DNA of 64,000 nucleotides from Bacteroidia bacterium (GCA_027493955.1 JAOSJT010000001.1:1349131-1413130); one strand, 5' to 3'; counted from the first letter of the stretch, positions 34,271-48,942 are shown. Numbers and translations: made by a program. The notes: generated from the sequence alone by a model not told the origin.

Positions 34271-34645
34271 TCACGACCCCTCACCCTCGAAGAGCGGAGT
34301 TTGTGCGTCGTGACCGCGTAACAGATGATGGAGTGCGTTCCGAAGTGGCGGTAAATCCGTCGAAAGAATCTGCCACACGATATCCAGGTCTACTTCCTCA
34401 TAGGCATGAATCAACCTGTTCCGCGTACCACTCATTTCCCTCCACGGTATATCAGGATGCGCAGTTCTCGTTTCTTCGCTGACTTTCGACGCGGCTTCAC
34501 CGATGATTTCGAGAAGTCGTATAATCGCGAGGGCACGCATTTCATCGGACTGGAGGTCCTGACGACGTATCGTGTCGCTAAATCCCAGCGCTTTCTCCGT
34601 CGCGTCAAGCATGTGGCGGATGCGAATGCGGTCCTTATTCAGCAT
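34271..34645 (-). CDS. hepT: HepT-like toxin (DUF86, HEPN-type RNase) of a HepT/MntA toxin-antitoxin pair
   Basis: R-x4-H-x-Y motif (RNRLIHAY) near the C-terminus. Overlaps the upstream nucleotidyltransferase gene. Confidence 0.8.
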   Translation of the reverse strand: MLNKDRIRIRHMLDATEKALGFSDTIRRQDLQSDEMRALAIIRLLEIIGEAASKVSEETRTAHPDIPWREMSGTRNRLIHAYEEVDLDIVWQILSTDLPPLRNALHHLLRGHDAQTPLFEGEGS

Positions 34646-34934
34646 AGAGAACCCGGGCGTGTTGCATGACTTCCTCTCTGAAGTATTTGCTCAAACTGTT
34701 CGGTGTATGAAGATCGACGCGGCGATGCAGTAACTCCTCCAACTCGTCCTGCATTGTGATAAATGCGAACCCGGGAACGTGCCCTTCATGGAATTCCACA
34801 AGAACGTCGATGTCACTCGAATCGGTAAAATGTTGTCCCAGAATTGATCCGAAGAGTGATAACTTCTTCACATGGTATCGGCCACAGAGGGCGGTGAGCG
34901 CTTCGATAGGGATCGATGAGAGATGTTCCGTCAT
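34635..34934 (-). CDS. mntA: MntA-like minimal nucleotidyltransferase antitoxin
   Basis: GS-x10-DxD motif: LFGSILGQHFTDSSDIDVLV. Confidence 0.8.
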   Translation of the reverse strand: MTEHLSSIPIEALTALCGRYHVKKLSLFGSILGQHFTDSSDIDVLVEFHEGHVPGFAFITMQDELEELLHRRVDLHTPNSLSKYFREEVMQHARVLYAE

Positions 34935-42371: not shown

Positions 42372-42975
42372 GCCGGCACTCCTGAAAGGTGAGTCGCTTC
42401 TGTTTTTCGATGCAAAGCCGGGGTGCTTCAAGATTCTCAGCCCCGGGACGGATTCATCACTGAAATTAGGGCTTTTCGGCGACATTCTCAATTCTGCATC
42501 GGGAACTCTGAATTGAGTAGGAGGGAGTTGGGGATGTCTGATTTCCTAGCGCTGCCACCTCCACCTCTCGAAACCATGCGTTAATAGTGGCACAGGACTC
42601 GGTAGCGAGTTGCGAAGGTGGGGATTGTAACTTGTGGCACAATTCGAAATTACGTTTTGCGCGAAACGGGTTGTAGGCTGCGGGATCATGATTTGGAAAA
42701 TATATCAGACAGAAGTGCATGCCGACTCAACCGCATGTCATCTCGTGTGTTCTACTGATCAGGGATCAGCATCAGAACTTGTCGCTTCCTTCTTGGATCT
42801 TAACGGGGTATCGAAACTGAATAAATTTATCCCGAACAAGACACGGATTCATAACATGCGGATCTATGAAAAAGGGAGGACGCAGTGTTCCTCCCTTTGT
42901 GAGTATTCGTCGATGATTGAGTAGTAGGACTATATTTCCGGACTTCGGTACTGAGTTCTAACCAGAGTATACATC

Positions 42976-43305
42976 TTACTCGGGAAATTCGGTAATCTCG
43001 TATTCCGTAGGGATACGATCTGTAGAGGCTCCGATACTCGCTCCGCGCCCCTCGAACTCGTCGTGTACGGTAAAATCTTTACCGTCTGATGAGACACAGT
43101 AGCACGGAACTGGTTCTGGCCAACAATAGAAGGTATGAACTCTTCCACCATCTGCGTTCATACCCCAGGTTTTACTTTCATATCTGCCATCCCTACATGT
43201 TCCCGCGCCACTCCAAGTATAGCCATCTTGCGCGGTGTAGTTCGTAGACGTTGACACGCTCAAGAAGGCGAGCGCGAAAACAATGAAGACCATCAGCAAC
43301 TTCAT
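42976..43305 (-). CDS. Small secreted Cys/Trp-rich hypothetical protein (109 aa) in low-GC island
   Basis: Signal peptide MKLLMVFIVFALAFLSVS, and 5 Cys (CRDGRY, FYCWPEPVPCYC). Confidence 0.5.
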   Translation of the reverse strand: MKLLMVFIVFALAFLSVSTSTNYTAQDGYTWSGAGTCRDGRYESKTWGMNADGGRVHTFYCWPEPVPCYCVSSDGKDFTVHDEFEGRGASIGASTDRIPTEYEITEFPE

Positions 43306-43367
43306 TTCACCTCCAGTTTATAACGATGCCCACATTCATTGTGAATCGACAGGTATATGCATTTCGA

Positions 43368-43781
43368 TTACAGTCTGTTTGATTTGCGTTTTAATCTGTA
43401 TATAATTGCAGGAATAGCGTTTTCACTTGTACCGATATATATAGTATCCTTCTTGTGCAAGGCTATCACCCATGGGTACGTCGTTGGATCTATCGACGAA
43501 ACACTGTCCGCTGGATAGTATTTCACATCGAATCCCTTTTTCGCGAACAAAGCAATTCTTTTCCGAGCTTCAATCGGCCGTTCAGCGACAACGTATATTG
43601 TGTTTCGGAAGGAATATAACTCCAACCGCCTACAACACTCTATAAGAGTTGAAACACAAGATATGCAACCATCTGCCGGTATAAACATTTTCACGGTAGC
43701 ATTGTTATCAAATTTCTGCGCTATACTGGGTACCACCGCCCAGAACGAGTAAAATAGGGTACATAGCAGAAACCGTCGCAC
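43368..43781 (-). CDS. Small secreted hypothetical protein with CxxC/CC motifs (thioredoxin-like?) in low-GC island
   Basis: Signal peptide MRRFLLCTLFYSFWAVVPSIAQ, and Cys motifs DGCISCVSTLIECC. Confidence 0.45.
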   Translation of the reverse strand: MRRFLLCTLFYSFWAVVPSIAQKFDNNATVKMFIPADGCISCVSTLIECCRRLELYSFRNTIYVVAERPIEARKRIALFAKKGFDVKYYPADSVSSIDPTTYPWVIALHKKDTIYIGTSENAIPAIIYRLKRKSNRL

Positions 43782-43791
43782 GCCTTCACCC

Positions 43792-44985
43792 TCAATTTAT
43801 TATGATTTTATACTTGTACATAAGGTAGTTCCTCTCCCCCGTTGTGCTCCTGGCAATAACATAGGCATAGTCATTCTCGTCGAGCACGATTTGCTCAATG
43901 ATCCTGGATATGTTTTCAAACGTCGCAGTTCCAATGTAGCGAAGCGAACCTGGATGATATAAGTGAGCTGCATAGCGAATATTGTTACCATATTTTTCCA
44001 TTGCAAAGACGCATAGATGACGACAGGATTCGCTGATTGACCTTATTGCAATTCGATCTGGCGATAACTGTTCACCAACATTCCCGCCTCGTGGGAGCGC
44101 ACATGCTATTCGATCCTCCATATAGTAAAGGTATGGCTCAACCCCATGAGAATACAAACACACGCCATCATTTTTCCAAAATACGACTGGCTCTTCTATG
44201 GCATACTCCCAAGGGGTTGCTTCTCTTTTGGCAAAAATGTATGTATTATCGTCTGGCTTGCTATATCGAAACATTGTTTTAGGATTGTCAATATTGTTCT
44301 TTAATGTCATCAATCCTCCTATAATAGTATCGCATGCGGGATTCAGATAATACGAACCACAAACATAGTTATACGGATACAACGTTATCTGGCAGACTGT
44401 TAGTCTTTTTGAGTGCGTGTCAACGCGTAAGAGTGCCGGTAAACCGAGAACAGTTGTATCCTGCTTATGATTCCTGCTAATGATACACGGACCGGAGACC
44501 AAGGTTAGTAACACAATCTCATCATCTGAGATGATTCTGTAACCTCTGACGTAATGTTGAATTCGCGCAAGTAATTCCTCGTTTCTAATGCATTTACGCG
44601 AAATACTGTAGGCTTGCTGCGAATCAGGCTTGATGTACCCTTTAATTTCCCTGACTTCCCGTTGATTCTGCGGAAACAGCGAATCGACGAGTTCTTCTTT
44701 TAATTCAAAGTGGAATGTAACAGCTCCTGATTTTATGTCTCGAAATGTGATGGAATTATCCATGAATCCTGAGATGATGAGTTGTTCCTTCTCTATACTT
44801 GCAACATTCACAGATACTATCTCACAGCCTTCATCTTCCGACAGAACAACGGAATCCACCAATGAGTACTCAACGATTGCCTCATTAGGACGTTCCAGAG
44901 GTACTTTTGAGGACACAGCTAACGAAATTGCGGCTACCACAATTGGGAGACAGACAATGGCCGCTATTCTTGTTTTCGCCTTCAT
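43792..44985 (-). CDS. Membrane-anchored/secreted hypothetical protein (397 aa), beta-rich, low-GC island
   Basis: Trimmed to MKAKTRIAAIVCLPIVVAAISLAVSS; the ATG at 44985 was verified. Rich in Tyr, Asn and Ile; no family recognised. The ORF-track start at 45219 is an upstream extension rich in Arg and Lys. Confidence 0.5.
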   Translation of the reverse strand: MKAKTRIAAIVCLPIVVAAISLAVSSKVPLERPNEAIVEYSLVDSVVLSEDEGCEIVSVNVASIEKEQLIISGFMDNSITFRDIKSGAVTFHFELKEELVDSLFPQNQREVREIKGYIKPDSQQAYSISRKCIRNEELLARIQHYVRGYRIISDDEIVLLTLVSGPCIISRNHKQDTTVLGLPALLRVDTHSKRLTVCQITLYPYNYVCGSYYLNPACDTIIGGLMTLKNNIDNPKTMFRYSKPDDNTYIFAKREATPWEYAIEEPVVFWKNDGVCLYSHGVEPYLYYMEDRIACALPRGGNVGEQLSPDRIAIRSISESCRHLCVFAMEKYGNNIRYAAHLYHPGSLRYIGTATFENISRIIEQIVLDENDYAYVIARSTTGERNYLMYKYKIIIN

Positions 44986-45225
44986 TCGGACCTCCGTCTT
45001 TCTTCTCGAACCAATTTTCTTTGACTCTCTATTTGTATTTACCCACCACTTGCTCCGCCTTGGCGAGTTTTTTTGTATTTTTTTTTCAGTCGCCGACGTT
45101 TTTCTTCGAAGTTCGCGCGATTCGCCGGTTCTCACTGAGTTTGTCGCGCTCGTGCGGAGCCGTTCCTCGCCTGTTGCCCGGCCTTTTCCATGGCTCCGCG
45201 GCGAAATTTGCCACGACAATGCCGA

Positions 45226-46353
45226 TCACCTTCTACGGTTCCAGGTCGTGCGCAATTCATCCCTGAACCAATTCACGATGTTCAGGTATATCGACCGATA
45301 CGTAGCCCTGTATTCCGCGGAGCTCATGCCTTCGTTCCTACGGAAATACACGGCGGGCTCTTCCGCGATCCCGATCAGACAATCACTGATCCACTCCCGG
45401 ATCGCGCCGAGCATGGCCTCTGCCACAGGCATCGTGAGCTTTCCTTTCCCGACATAGGCCGCACGCACCCATGCCCCCGTCGTATCGAGCGCCGCCTCGA
45501 TGCCGGCCCGCAGCTCATTTTCCTCTCTCTCCGGAATACCATGTTCGCTTGACTCACCCTCCCCGGACTTGTACATAGCCGCAGGCCACATCTTCGTATA
45601 GTGCAACACGTCCCTTTCGGGCACCTCGCGTCTGTAATCCTCCTGAGCGGCGAGGACACTCAGACTGGCAGTCAGAACCTGTACGACGGGATTAGTCGGG
45701 TGCCCCCCGCTCGATGAGGCGACGCGGGCGTTGTAGATCGGGAGATACCGGGGGATGCGCCGGAGGAGCTCCTCGACCGGCATGAACGGTCGGTCTTTCA
45801 GTATATCTCTGCCGGCAAGGCTGTATACGCGACCGAGCTCGGAGTCAGCATGCTTCAGTCCGGGCGTCTTTTTCCTATGATGATCAAGCGCCCTTAGAAG
45901 ATTTGTATGCGTGGCATTGTCTTCCGACAAAATGCGGCAAAACTCCTGACGCACGCAACGCCGGACGAGACCGTGTATATACCCGCACGGGAGTACGAAA
46001 TGCTCAGGGAAAGTGCAAATTGCCGCAAGCGATCGTCTGAGTTTCCCGCAGGGCTTCTTCCCGTCCCAAGCGAGAAGGCCTGCCATGCTATCATTCGCCA
46101 CGTCGCGTTGCGACAGGCCCAACTCGTCGAGCCGCCAATATCCGTGATGCATCTGACGCCCGACTTCCTCATATTCAAACGTCAGCATTATCTGAATAGG
46201 CTCCGCCACCTCGGCGTTGCTCAGCGTCCGCTCCAACAGACCCCGGAACAAACGCTCATGCACGTTTTTGTGTTCGCACTCCGCCATACGGGACTCCTCA
46301 CCTCGTTTGTCCGCAACATCCGGACCCGAACCCTCACGACACCGGGACATCAT
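45226..46353 (-). CDS. Cytoplasmic hypothetical protein (start possibly 46287, MAECEHKNV)
   Basis: High-GC ORF immediately upstream of, and co-oriented with, the low-GC island genes. No motif recognised. Confidence 0.5.
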   Translation of the reverse strand: MMSRCREGSGPDVADKRGEESRMAECEHKNVHERLFRGLLERTLSNAEVAEPIQIMLTFEYEEVGRQMHHGYWRLDELGLSQRDVANDSMAGLLAWDGKKPCGKLRRSLAAICTFPEHFVLPCGYIHGLVRRCVRQEFCRILSEDNATHTNLLRALDHHRKKTPGLKHADSELGRVYSLAGRDILKDRPFMPVEELLRRIPRYLPIYNARVASSSGGHPTNPVVQVLTASLSVLAAQEDYRREVPERDVLHYTKMWPAAMYKSGEGESSEHGIPEREENELRAGIEAALDTTGAWVRAAYVGKGKLTMPVAEAMLGAIREWISDCLIGIAEEPAVYFRRNEGMSSAEYRATYRSIYLNIVNWFRDELRTTWNRRR

Positions 46354-46529
46354 GCGCTCCGCGCGAAACAGGACAGACGATCCCGTCGCGGAGTGATCCA
46401 GGCTCCGGTCAACATTTTACGAGGTTTTTCTCTGATATGCAATATGGATTGAGACCGGAGAAAAGAAAAAGGGAAGCAACCCGGACGGATCACTTCCCTT
46501 CGCATACGGCAGGGTTCACTTCACCGATT

Positions 46530-47528
46530 TCACACCACCTGCCGGAACACTCTCCTCGTCATACGGAGCATGTGGCTTCCCCCCACCGGCAACCAACTGA
46601 AGCGATGCAGCGAGCCCAGAAACAATCCTGACATGATCAGCAGCAGACCCACGAATGTCGAGGGGTATATGCGTTCGCCAACGATGCCGCTTATCAGTAT
46701 CAGCGAAAGAAACGGCACCAGATACACAACATTCCCGATTCGCGCCGACGACTCGCCCGAGGTCAGCGCACGGAACCAGATCACATAGGTTATTCCCATT
46801 TCGAACAAGCCGATATACATCGACCCCAGCAGACCGCGTCCCTGCGGCAGAGTCAGACCATCGGTGAGCAGCAGGTAGATCAAAATAAACGCGGAGCCGA
46901 AGGCAAAGTTGACGAACAGACGGACGATGCGGTCTCGTTCTTCCCGCATGTTCAGTATCCAATAGCCCGCCCAGATCGCCGCGCTTGCCACGGCGCAGAG
47001 CAGTCCGCCGATATGCAACTCCGCCAGCGCGGCGGCACCGCCACCAAGCGAAATCACGACGACACCCACAAAGCTCATACTGATTTTTATATAATCCATA
47101 CGCAGGATTTTCTGGCCGAGGAACACCGCCGAGAGCAGTATCAGAAAAACGGGCCATATATAATTAATCGGCTGCGCGAACTGCGCAGGCAGCAAATCAT
47201 AGGAGGAGAACATCAGCAGATAGTAGAGAAAGGGATTCAGGGCGCCCAGCACGGCGGACTTACCATAATCCCGCAAGGACCAAAGATGCCGCAGTCTCCA
47301 CAACTTCCGCTGGCGGACAAGGACCAGAAACAGGACGACGAGCGAGGTGGCCGAGGCGGTGAGCAACATGGGACCCACCTTCGTATACCCGAGCGTCAGT
47401 TTGAACGCCGACGCGACCGTGGACCACAGAAAGGTGGCGAGTATCGCGTCCTGCAGGCCGCCGCCTTCGCGGAGTCCCGTGATTGCTTTCCAGCCGTTGC
47501 TTCGTATGCTCTGCGCAGATATCTGCAT
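46530..47528 (-). CDS. EamA/DMT-superfamily transporter (10 TM)
   Basis: Two EamA-like halves, each with 5 hydrophobic helices. Start placed at MQISAQSIRSNGWKAITG, 47528 verified. Confidence 0.75.
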   Translation of the reverse strand: MQISAQSIRSNGWKAITGLREGGGLQDAILATFLWSTVASAFKLTLGYTKVGPMLLTASATSLVVLFLVLVRQRKLWRLRHLWSLRDYGKSAVLGALNPFLYYLLMFSSYDLLPAQFAQPINYIWPVFLILLSAVFLGQKILRMDYIKISMSFVGVVVISLGGGAAALAELHIGGLLCAVASAAIWAGYWILNMREERDRIVRLFVNFAFGSAFILIYLLLTDGLTLPQGRGLLGSMYIGLFEMGITYVIWFRALTSGESSARIGNVVYLVPFLSLILISGIVGERIYPSTFVGLLLIMSGLFLGSLHRFSWLPVGGSHMLRMTRRVFRQVV

Positions 47529-48705
47529 TACCGTTTTTTCTGTTTTGCGTTGCGCCCCGCGGCAGTCGGCGCGGAGACACTGTGTTCGATACATGGAGAG
47601 GTTGGCCGGGTGACGGAGTCCGGTAGCGGTTGCTCGCGTCACCCTTCAGCGGAGGGTATGTTCAGAGGGAAGCGATTGCCGACCGCTCGTGAATGAAGTA
47701 CGCGCGCGCCGAGGAATCGTGGAGGGATTTTTGGAGGGGATTGACGTTTGTCATTTTCTCTGAGTTTATGTACCGCAATTGGTCGCGGCAGATTCGCTAT
47801 TAATATAGCGATTTATTTTGAGAAAGCAAGATCCTTGCAAATATATTCCGTATGATACTTCATTTCTCTGCAATTATCCTGCTTTATTCGACCAATAGTG
47901 CAATATTTTCACAAGAGAGAGGCTGCATTCAGCATATCTGCAGTATCGAAGTGGGGCTGGGATTCGCATCCTACGACATCATTAGAAATCGAACACCGGC
48001 GCAGTCCTGCTTATGACATCAGGTGATGTGTACCAAGGATGACTGTGGCCGGTCCCTTCGGCGGTAGGCGAGCGCTCTTCGGCTTCGTTCAGGGTGCGGA
48101 AACTCCGCACAAGGACCGAAACCACCGGGAATAATGTCATCCGCAAAATCGACCGGTGTACGCGCCTCTAAGAACGCTGTTACTGACATCGAGTAGGATT
48201 TACTTGCTTGACCGGACGCTGCTCCTTCGACTCCGTGCCCGTGAACGTCGGTGCATCCTCCAGCGATATTGCTGCGGGCACTCCGCTGCTAAGGACATGT
48301 TGGACGATATGGGTCGACTCTGAGACTACCAAACCTCGTCACCCTGAGTGTTTCTACCGGCGCGTACACCGGCCCATTTCTGAGCTGACATCTGAGACGT
48401 ATCAGTAGCGCCAACAAACCCCGTCACCCTGAGCGAAACGACCGCTGCACGTAGTGAGTCTGAGGCACAGACTTTCACGGTCGTGGAGTCGTCCTTCGAC
48501 AGCCACCGGGTGATACCTGGTCATTGCAGCTAAAATATTCTCGTGGTGGCTGCTCAGGAGGCCTGCGTCCGGAATCCGCGAGTCAAGTAGGTCCGCACAG
48601 TCTCCAAGATGTCATTAACAGGAGGCACGACAGGAAAGGTGCGTTTCGAAGCTCAGATTCAAGCAGAGTGCCGTCAGGGTGACCGTGTTTGCGTCGATTT
48701 CTTCA

Positions 48706-48867: not shown

Positions 48868-48942
48868 GTGCCTTCTGTGGTACTGCCTTCTGTGGTACTG
48901 CCTTCTGTGGTACTGCCTTCTGTGGTACTGCCTTCTGTGGTC
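48868..48942 (+). repeat. 15-bp tandem repeat (ctgccttctgtggta) x5, followed by a T8 run
   Basis: Perfect head-to-tail copies at 48868, 48883, 48898, 48913 and 48928. Confidence 0.9.

Follow-up and report, generated by a model that had tools for sequence, protein, structure and literature searches.

A horizontally acquired, strain-variable islet in a Bacteroidia genome, with a candidate pair of exported propeller and CxxC proteins

Within a 64-kb stretch of DNA from a Bacteroidia bacterium (GCA_027493955.1, JAOSJT010000001.1:1349131-1413130; hereafter the window, whose coordinates are used throughout), a single segment stands apart from everything around it in base composition. It raises three questions: where the atypical DNA begins and ends, whether it came from elsewhere, and what its genes might do together. 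The segment is an islet of 2.5 kb with three co-oriented minus-strand genes, here called A, B and C, lying between a gene for a protein of 353 amino acids (aa) and the conserved gene gdh (Table 1). We found that the islet is horizontally acquired, lineage-specific and strain-variable DNA, and that A, modelled as an exported beta-propeller, and B, a small CxxC protein, form a conserved pair that recurs in distant relatives. What this pair may do is a matter of graded probability, which we weigh below.

Composition, borders and strain variation of the islet

The first-pass annotation of this DNA had pointed to a fall in guanine-plus-cytosine (GC) content at ~42.4-45.2 kb, and this fall is both real and unique in the window. 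In 1-kb bins, GC content dropped to 0.443 (43-44 kb) and 0.427 (44-45 kb) against a window mean of 0.565, while every remaining bin was at least 0.519. At finer resolution (400-nucleotide (nt) windows), values of 0.405-0.495 over ~42.4-45.2 kb compared with 0.55-0.65 in the flanks. GC content at third codon positions (GC3) followed the same pattern: 0.42, 0.43 and 0.52 for A, B and C, respectively, with 11 genes elsewhere in the window lying at 0.64-0.76. The sharpest compositional outlier of the window is the segment 42522-44999. The island had originally been drawn at 42372-46353; its dip stands, but its borders lie at ~42521 and ~44999, as the following comparisons with related genomes indicate.

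Two contigs of the same strain, L001 and L002, were 99.97-99.99% identical to the window, with A and C identical in both and B identical in L002. A sister strain, represented by contigs L003, L005 and L011 (~95% identical in the flank), shares the EamA gene (~92% nucleotide identity), the 353-aa gene and a 225-nt intergenic segment (95.5% identity). Collinearity with the sister strain then stops at ~44999, ~17 nt ahead of the ATG of A, in a sharp junction, and we set the left border by this break with L003 and L005. In place of A, B and C, the slot in L003 and L011 holds genes for leader-bearing proteins of 333, 176 and 73 aa, again of low GC content (0.43-0.50), none of which resembles A, B or C; the 333-aa protein gave a weak match to the C-terminal domain of type IX secretion system (T9SS) cargo. 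Beyond this cargo, L003 runs on into SOD, not gdh. The right border at ~42521 was set by the end of homology with L013, the nearest species, whose gdh product is 90% identical at the amino acid level and which aligns with the window from gdh up to this point.

The gdh/PPDK-like gene pair is kept in 13 related species. The EamA gene, the 353-aa gene, A, B, C and the low-GC patch itself were all absent from the 5-9 kb upstream of gdh in these species, with L013 contributing just 1.8 kb of upstream sequence to the comparison. Since the islet is absent from relatives and replaced by an unrelated low-GC trio in the sister strain, it is horizontally acquired and strain-variable DNA, in agreement with the acquisition first suggested from its composition. 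The slot between the 353-aa gene and gdh is recombination-prone.

How the islet arrived is less apparent from its content. No direct or inverted repeats were found at its borders, no recombinase domains were detected in A, B, C or the 353-aa protein with Pfam and NCBIfam, the closest tRNAs lie at 12.2 and 63.0 kb of the window, and phage, plasmid and viral-contig collections gave no match to it. The islet resembles regions of genome plasticity in its atypical composition, its absence from relatives, the alternative cargo of the sister strain and its secreted or surface content. It differs from them in lacking an integrase, tRNA or flanking repeat, in its very small size (2.5 kb), and in a junction that precedes the first start codon by ~17 nt.

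A predicted exported propeller and a recurring CxxC neighbour

Each of the three proteins has one N-terminal hydrophobic export leader. The reading frames of 397, 137 and 109 aa that the first-pass annotation listed as secreted were recovered with their leaders, together with the CISC and CC motifs of B and the four cysteines and three tryptophans of C, and the beta-rich character it ascribed to the 397-aa protein was borne out by structure prediction. Its further statement that no family could be assigned also held, as A, B, C and the 353-aa protein gave no family match in Pfam, NCBIfam, PHROG or PADLOC, and no PADLOC anti-phage model matched any of the four proteins at E≤1. In a set of 5.8 billion clusters, each of A, B and C stands as a singleton at 90% identity, and a word-indexed search there with A and B returned self-matches only. 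The exact A protein is GenBank MCZ7555856.1 and the adjacent gdh product is MCZ7555855.1; because these accessions are consecutive, B and C (42976-43781) appear to be unannotated in the GenBank record of this metagenome-assembled genome (MAG). Other gene callers predicted both on same-strain contigs, and the exact C protein was called on four of these.

An AlphaFold2 (AF2) model of A, built with a family alignment, is all-beta with ~26 strands (predicted local distance difference test score, pLDDT, 84.7; predicted template modelling score, pTM, 0.82). Foldseek comparison of the model with the PDB gave 344 matches at E≤1e-3, all of them propellers. The matches were generic (template modelling (TM) scores of 0.35-0.5; WD40 proteins and the clathrin N-terminal domain among them), the bacterial ones included B. 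fragilis 4raa, Lp49 and BamB, and among viral structures A matched generic propellers only. By sequence profile a single WD40-type blade was seen, at positions 64-108 of the A-family profile, which match WD40 blades of WDR5, FBXW7 and designed propellers. Among 1.84 billion representatives, an exhaustive HMMER search recovered only 9 relatives of A (22-33% identity; E-values of 1e-33 to 5e-4), four of them from JGI sample 3300075153; metagenome scans with one relative, P0020, gave no match. The high-confidence model and the search together indicate that A is a WD40-like beta-propeller of a new, very sparse family. Its best bacterial Foldseek match, B. fragilis BF0058 (PDB 4raa; TM-score 0.45 normalised to the query and 0.50 to the target), is likewise an exported all-beta propeller of about 350-400 aa, but the likeness is at the level of fold only (10% identity, root-mean-square deviation 9.5 Å), the two share no Pfam or NCBIfam family, and the blade recognised in A is of the WD40 type.

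The N-terminus of A is a predicted signal or anchor helix whose leader ends in SLAVSS without a lipobox cysteine; most of its relatives have a lipoprotein-like cysteine directly after the leader (IAGC, IPGC, TSGC, LTSC and others). A has 10 cysteines outside the leader, and proteins of the family have 5-11 internal cysteines each. Members of the family sit in low-GC surroundings elsewhere too: the L006 gene has a GC content of 0.53 versus 0.66 upstream, and the module at L008 has 0.30-0.41 versus 0.46-0.54 in its flanks.

A gene for a CxxC protein of 137-162 aa lies directly downstream of the A-family gene in all three loci for which DNA was available (the window, L007 and L008). In L007 the order of products is 399, 138 and 112 aa; in L008, L009 and L010 it is a 206-aa protein with a weak match to AraC-type helix-turn-helix (HTH) domains, then 137, 414, 162 and 338 aa and a T9SS zincin. 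The start of the partner gene overlaps the stop of the A-family gene in L007 (138 aa) and L008 (162 aa), and in the window the two are separated by a 10-nt gap; A and B are probably translationally coupled. For five further relatives (P0017, P0018, P0019, P0020 and P0024) the context is known as gene sizes and order only: 410, 132 and 86+ aa in P0019 and 64+, 411, 176 and 103+ aa in P0020, where the downstream genes (132 and 176 aa) are of a size compatible with B; 412 and 1187 aa in P0024; and 434 aa in P0017, where the next gene, of 103 aa, was called in the opposite orientation. The contig ends right after the A-family gene in P0018, as it does in P0016. The A-B pair of L008, which comes from another organism, lies within a larger low-GC block (L008:1337-6421). 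The gene with the weak AraC-type HTH match, the gene for the 338-aa protein, which is secreted, and that for the zincin, a metalloprotease bearing a T9SS C-terminal domain, belong to this block too, and T9SS cargo genes border it.

The partner proteins are built alike. B has an expected mature length of ~115 aa, with CISC at the N-terminus of its first helix and a CC pair, and the proteins from L007 and L008 show the same succession of leader, strand, G-CxxC (CMSC and CQKC, respectively) and helix, so that the CxxC is invariant in the three. BLAST between these B-type proteins was not significant. Shuffle-calibrated local alignments showed a weak similarity that was consistent across the three pairs, with z-scores of 4.2, 3.2 and 2.4 (p = 0.003, 0.012 and 0.029), with the CxxC and a V-x-A-x-R-E motif in register in every alignment, whereas control alignments of B with C gave z-scores scattered around 0. 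The recurrence of the partner, the register of the CxxC and these z-scores indicate that A and B are a conserved pair.

The third gene behaves differently. C, whose leader is of the Sec type, has four cysteines in its mature part, three tryptophans and an acidic C-terminal tail. Small secreted Cys-rich proteins adjoin A-B in L007 and L008 as well, so that the sizes including C are 109, 112 and ~115 aa, and these C-type proteins share acidic tails and a C-x6/7-C spacing after a hydrophobic strand. A homologous C family was considered and rejected after the shuffle test, in which z was about 0 and no homology was detectable. The C-type proteins are a shared class rather than a demonstrated family, and form the variable third component beside a conserved A-B core. 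The first-pass suggestion that the islet genes form a module is partly upheld, in that A and the CxxC protein recur as an adjacent pair in distant relatives; C is the least conserved of the three.

That B may be thioredoxin-like is suggested by its motif and by a model of moderate confidence. In a single-sequence AF2 model (pLDDT 67, pTM 0.62) B has the topology b-a-b-a-b-b-b-a, with a strand at residues 7-13, a helix at 18-30 and the CxxC cysteines at mature positions 17 and 20, so that the CxxC sits at the N-terminus of helix 1 right after strand 1, as in the thioredoxin fold. The best full-length Foldseek matches of this model, none of them at E≤1e-3, are thioredoxin domains, 4grf from Bacteroides (query-normalised TM-score 0.49) and 3kcm. 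The thioredoxin fold has a central mixed sheet in the order b-a-b-a-b-b-a, with a cis-proline loop ahead of strand 3. A candidate cis-proline motif, TYPW, occurs in the B protein of the window alone among the three, and no thioredoxin sequences were present among the open reading frames (ORFs) of the compared loci. B thus resembles a thioredoxin-fold oxidoreductase, of which it is a putative rather than an established member. The thiol-disulfide type proposed for it in the first-pass annotation draws support from the motif and the model and none from the profile comparisons reported below.

Table 1. Positions of the islet, its genes and the adjoining segments in the 64-kb window
Feature	Position	Strand	Basis
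Low-GC lineage-specific islet (acquired DNA)	42522..44999	-	GC dip and border comparisons with relatives
Gene A, 397 aa, ATG after GGAGG ribosome-binding site (RBS)	43792..44985	-	ORF; predicted WD40-like beta-propeller, 6-7 blades
Gene B, 137 aa, GTG start	43368..43781	-	ORF; starts 10 nt after the stop of A
Gene C, 109 aa, ATG after GGAGGTGAA RBS	42976..43305	-	ORF; strong leader (Kyte-Doolittle hydropathy 3.0)
Hairpin and T-run AAGGGAGGA-acactgcg-TCCTCCCTTTTT after C	42869..42897	-	Read by eye
Non-coding low-GC islet tail, between the likely terminator and the conserved gdh upstream region	42522..42868		No homology
Conserved intergenic segment, 353-aa gene to slot	45000..45225	-	~95% identity to L003/L005, ~78% to L012
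Gene for 353-aa cytoplasmic protein (start at 46353 gives 375 aa)	45226..46287	-	ORF; flanks the slot

Possible functions of the islet

The reading that we favour, and to which we would give an even chance, is that the islet is a horizontally acquired accessory operon in which the propeller A is served by a private CxxC partner, B, acting on A and/or C. Sec would carry all three proteins across the inner membrane. In the periplasm, the CxxC of B would act as a dithiol/disulfide on a thioredoxin-like scaffold and so provide a dedicated catalyst, by which disulfides of its Cys-rich neighbours A and/or C would be formed or shuffled; both this redox role and these substrates are what we infer from the motif and the neighbourhood. 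The propeller would then serve as a binding platform or an enzyme at the cell surface. Transcription could start in the conserved intergenic segment or arise by read-through from the 353-aa gene, and would end at the hairpin after C.

An arrangement of this kind has been described. DsbL/DsbI of uropathogenic E. coli is a dedicated periplasmic dithiol oxidase system encoded beside its propeller substrate ASST (Grimshaw et al., 2008, as cited in PMC4460558). The islet matches it in combining an exported propeller with its own small exported CxxC protein in one operon, and in the proposed role of the latter as a private oxidative-folding catalyst for an acquired periplasmic protein. It departs from it in that no homology was detected between A and ASST or between B and DsbL/DsbA, that the islet has no DsbI/DsbB-type membrane partner, and that B is much smaller (~115 aa mature) and has no DsbA-type helical insertion, its redox activity being a prediction.

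Several observations weigh against this proposal. The model of B is weak for residues 76-115, its C-terminal half; Foldseek returned no match to it at E≤1e-3, and partial Rossmann-like matches ranked above the thioredoxin domains. Sequence profiles were no more favourable: B found nothing in Pfam or NCBIfam at E≤1-10 and nothing in a profile search of the PDB, and hhalign assigned it a probability of 0.4% against glutaredoxin and 0.1% against thioredoxin, both reference alignments being tiny and the power therefore low. No membrane re-oxidant of the DsbB, VKOR or MauE type was found in the islet. Cysteine positions are not conserved across the A family, and a conserved structural disulfide in A is therefore not evident, while the C-type proteins of the three loci show no detectable homology (z about 0). 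The pairing of A and B itself was judged on DNA of three loci, and in P0024 the gene downstream of the A relative is the 1187-aa one and not a small CxxC gene. Finally, the hallmarks of a mobile genomic island that would account for the acquisition (integrase or transposase, tRNA target, flanking repeats) are missing here.

Of the alternatives, the one that fares best, though we think it unlikely, is the bacteriocin or effector module that the first-pass annotation had entertained. Here C would be a disulfide-stabilised antimicrobial or effector, B would oxidise it, and A would be an accessory, a receptor or an immunity lipoprotein. Strain-variable, acquired content is what competition loci typically show. 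The alternative cargo of L003 likewise consists of secreted proteins, C is itself a small Cys-rich secreted protein that ends in an acidic tail, and small secreted Cys-rich proteins stand beside A-B in L007 and L008 too. However, the islet has no transporter, immunity-type membrane protein or double-glycine leader, the leader of C being of the Sec type, and there is no dedicated exporter, C39 peptidase or membrane immunity protein in or beside it. C is moreover the unconserved component of a locus in which A and B are conserved, no toxin signal came from PADLOC, PHROG or Pfam, and there is no testable precedent for an exported propeller that confers immunity. Nothing in the islet points specifically to a bacteriocin/immunity system, and the proposal keeps a low probability.

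Slightly less probable still is that the islet holds no functional module at all and is a remnant of foreign DNA. In that case A would be an orphan surface protein standing alone, and B and C would be fortuitous or decaying ORFs. This would agree with the apparent absence of B and C from the annotation of the Prokaryotic Genome Annotation Pipeline (PGAP), as the consecutive gdh and A accessions suggest, with their singleton status among 5.8 billion clusters, and with the ~450 nt of non-coding low-GC tail after C. Against it, a B-like CxxC gene is found directly behind A in distant loci as well, and both B and C have a ribosome-binding site, an intact export leader and tight operon spacing; A and C are also preserved without change in both same-strain contigs, and B in L002.

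On a par with the remnant explanation in our estimation is a broader reading, in which A-B with a variable Cys-rich partner would be an undescribed, horizontally mobile and self-contained exported system; as a second possibility under it, the 353-aa gene with its 3' segment may define a new cargo-exchange platform for secretome genes of the lineage. Such a system may take the form of a disulfide-rich toxin or signal with its own folding catalyst and a propeller receptor or immunity lipoprotein, or that of a new periplasmic redox enzyme.

The platform can also be considered by itself, as an integron-like device in which the 353-aa gene and its 3' segment capture cargo by means of an unknown recombinase and A-B-C is one cassette. 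We regard this as improbable, and the history of the 353-aa gene bears on it from both sides. The first-pass annotation had described a high-GC cytoplasmic gene of 375 aa upstream of the islet, and its composition (GC3 0.68, host-like) and the lack of a hydrophobic segment agree with this, but public calls give 234, 353, 374 or 375 aa, with 353 the commonest. Homologues of the protein among the 5.8 billion clusters are same-species copies only; it has no PDB sequence match, and a metagenome scan with it gave none. The ratio of nonsynonymous to synonymous divergence (dN/dS) of the gene was 0.56 versus L003 and 0.42 versus L012, in which it is frameshifted, compared with 0.07-0.08 for the adjacent EamA gene. 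The gene is not part of the imported DNA; it is species-restricted and fast-evolving, under relaxed constraint. Its dS versus L003 is 0.059, about five-fold below that of EamA (0.32), which suggests that the 353-aa segment was exchanged between strains more recently than its core neighbour, and, together with the relaxed selection, that it may have been exchanged along with the cargo.

Variable DNA also lies on the other side of the 353-aa gene. In L003 and L011, a 796-nt insert separates it from the EamA gene (L003:8705-9824, corresponding to ~46464-46624 in the window) and carries a low-GC gene for a 166-aa lipoprotein-like protein on the opposite strand. On either side of the insert stands one copy of a 162-nt direct repeat (98% identity between copies), which consists of the EamA 3' end and terminator hairpin; the window has a single copy of the repeat and no insert. 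This is the footprint of a Campbell-type insertion or of the reverse event, a deletion between repeats. With A-B-C or the 333/176/73-aa set on one side and the 796-nt insert on the other, the locus is a recombination hot spot. Yet searches of Pfam, NCBIfam and PDB sequences with the 353-aa protein revealed no signature of a recombinase, transposase or nuclease, for which reason homologous or Campbell-type exchange accounts for the pattern better than a dedicated cassette system does. Nor do attC-like or repeated sites bound A-B-C, only two slot alleles were seen, and homologous recombination in the conserved flanks is the simpler explanation. To our eye the C-terminus of the 353-aa protein looks like an HTH, and the unrelated HTH-like gene upstream of the L008 module suggests a regulator and not a recombinase. 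An integron proper was tried as a candidate and rejected, there being no Phage_integrase or other Pfam match in the 353-aa protein and no repeated or imperfectly palindromic sites between A, B and C.

The least probable alternative is a two-subunit periplasmic redox enzyme resembling methylamine dehydrogenase (MADH), with A as heavy subunit, B as MauD-like maturation factor and C as light subunit: the order of a propeller gene, a thioredoxin-like CxxC gene and a small secreted Cys/Trp protein (3 Trp and 4 Cys in C) mirrors the mau gene order mauB-(E)-D-A, but A and C have no Pfam match to the MADH subunits at E≤1, MauG, MauE, amicyanin or another electron acceptor are absent from the islet and its neighbours (EamA, gdh and the 353-aa gene), and C, with its Sec-type leader and four cysteines, is unconserved between loci, whereas the leader of MauA is longer and of the Tat type, and its cysteines number about 12. 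In the mau system, the small subunit of MADH and its disulfides are matured by MauE and MauD (bioRxiv 10.64898/2026.03.05.709764).

Surroundings of the slot and significance

The non-coding parts of the locus carry features of their own (Table 1). The hairpin after C is likely the operon terminator, as read by eye; a consensus terminator scan did not list it. The islet tail beyond it had no homologous counterpart in relatives or at other junctions, and neither the tail nor the conserved intergenic segment matched Rfam at E≤1. The intergenic segment probably carries the promoter of the cargo genes. Past the islet, homology with L013 resumes at an inverted repeat (42487-42517; CTCAATTCAG...CAGAATTGAG), ~120-145 nt upstream of the gdh start and conserved in that species, which may serve in the regulation of gdh. 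Immediately upstream of this inverted repeat, L013 has a tandem array of CCTTTTCAC-type units.

A second strain-variable spot was observed near the islet at ~47700-48690, where ~1 kb has no credible ORF, falls to a GC content of 0.475 in part and could not be aligned with L003; the equivalent position in L003 holds a ~3.4-kb insertion with a gene for an AAA_14/DUF4143 ATPase. L003 also encodes a group II intron reverse transcriptase (RVT_1 and GIIM; L003:18306-19565), ~7 kb downstream of the slot and with no counterpart in the window. Elsewhere in the window, a perfect 15-nt tandem repeat of TGCCTTCTGTGGTAC (48869-48941, 4.9 copies) stands upstream of a saccharopine-dehydrogenase-like gene, and a toxin-antitoxin pair of MNT nucleotidyltransferase and HepT-like protein (Pfam calls, made on L001) is encoded on the minus strand at ~34271-34934, where the GC content is slightly low (0.52-0.53).

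Small islets of orphan genes for secreted proteins are a common find, and in most respects the significance of this one is ordinary, the function of its module being a proposal. What is new here are the precise borders, the replacement polymorphism in the sister strain, the sparse propeller family and its recurrent CxxC partner. The lineage, uncultured and of Ignavibacteria/Bacteroidota type, is known only from MAGs, and its oxidative-folding pathways are poorly mapped. If the pairing of A and B is functional, two protein families that are new, and very rare as a pair, would join the known theme of imported periplasmic proteins that come with a disulfide catalyst of their own. The locus also provides a clean, small example of strain-level turnover of the secretome at a fixed junction, and the alleles of the slot could serve to follow strain dynamics in metagenomes.

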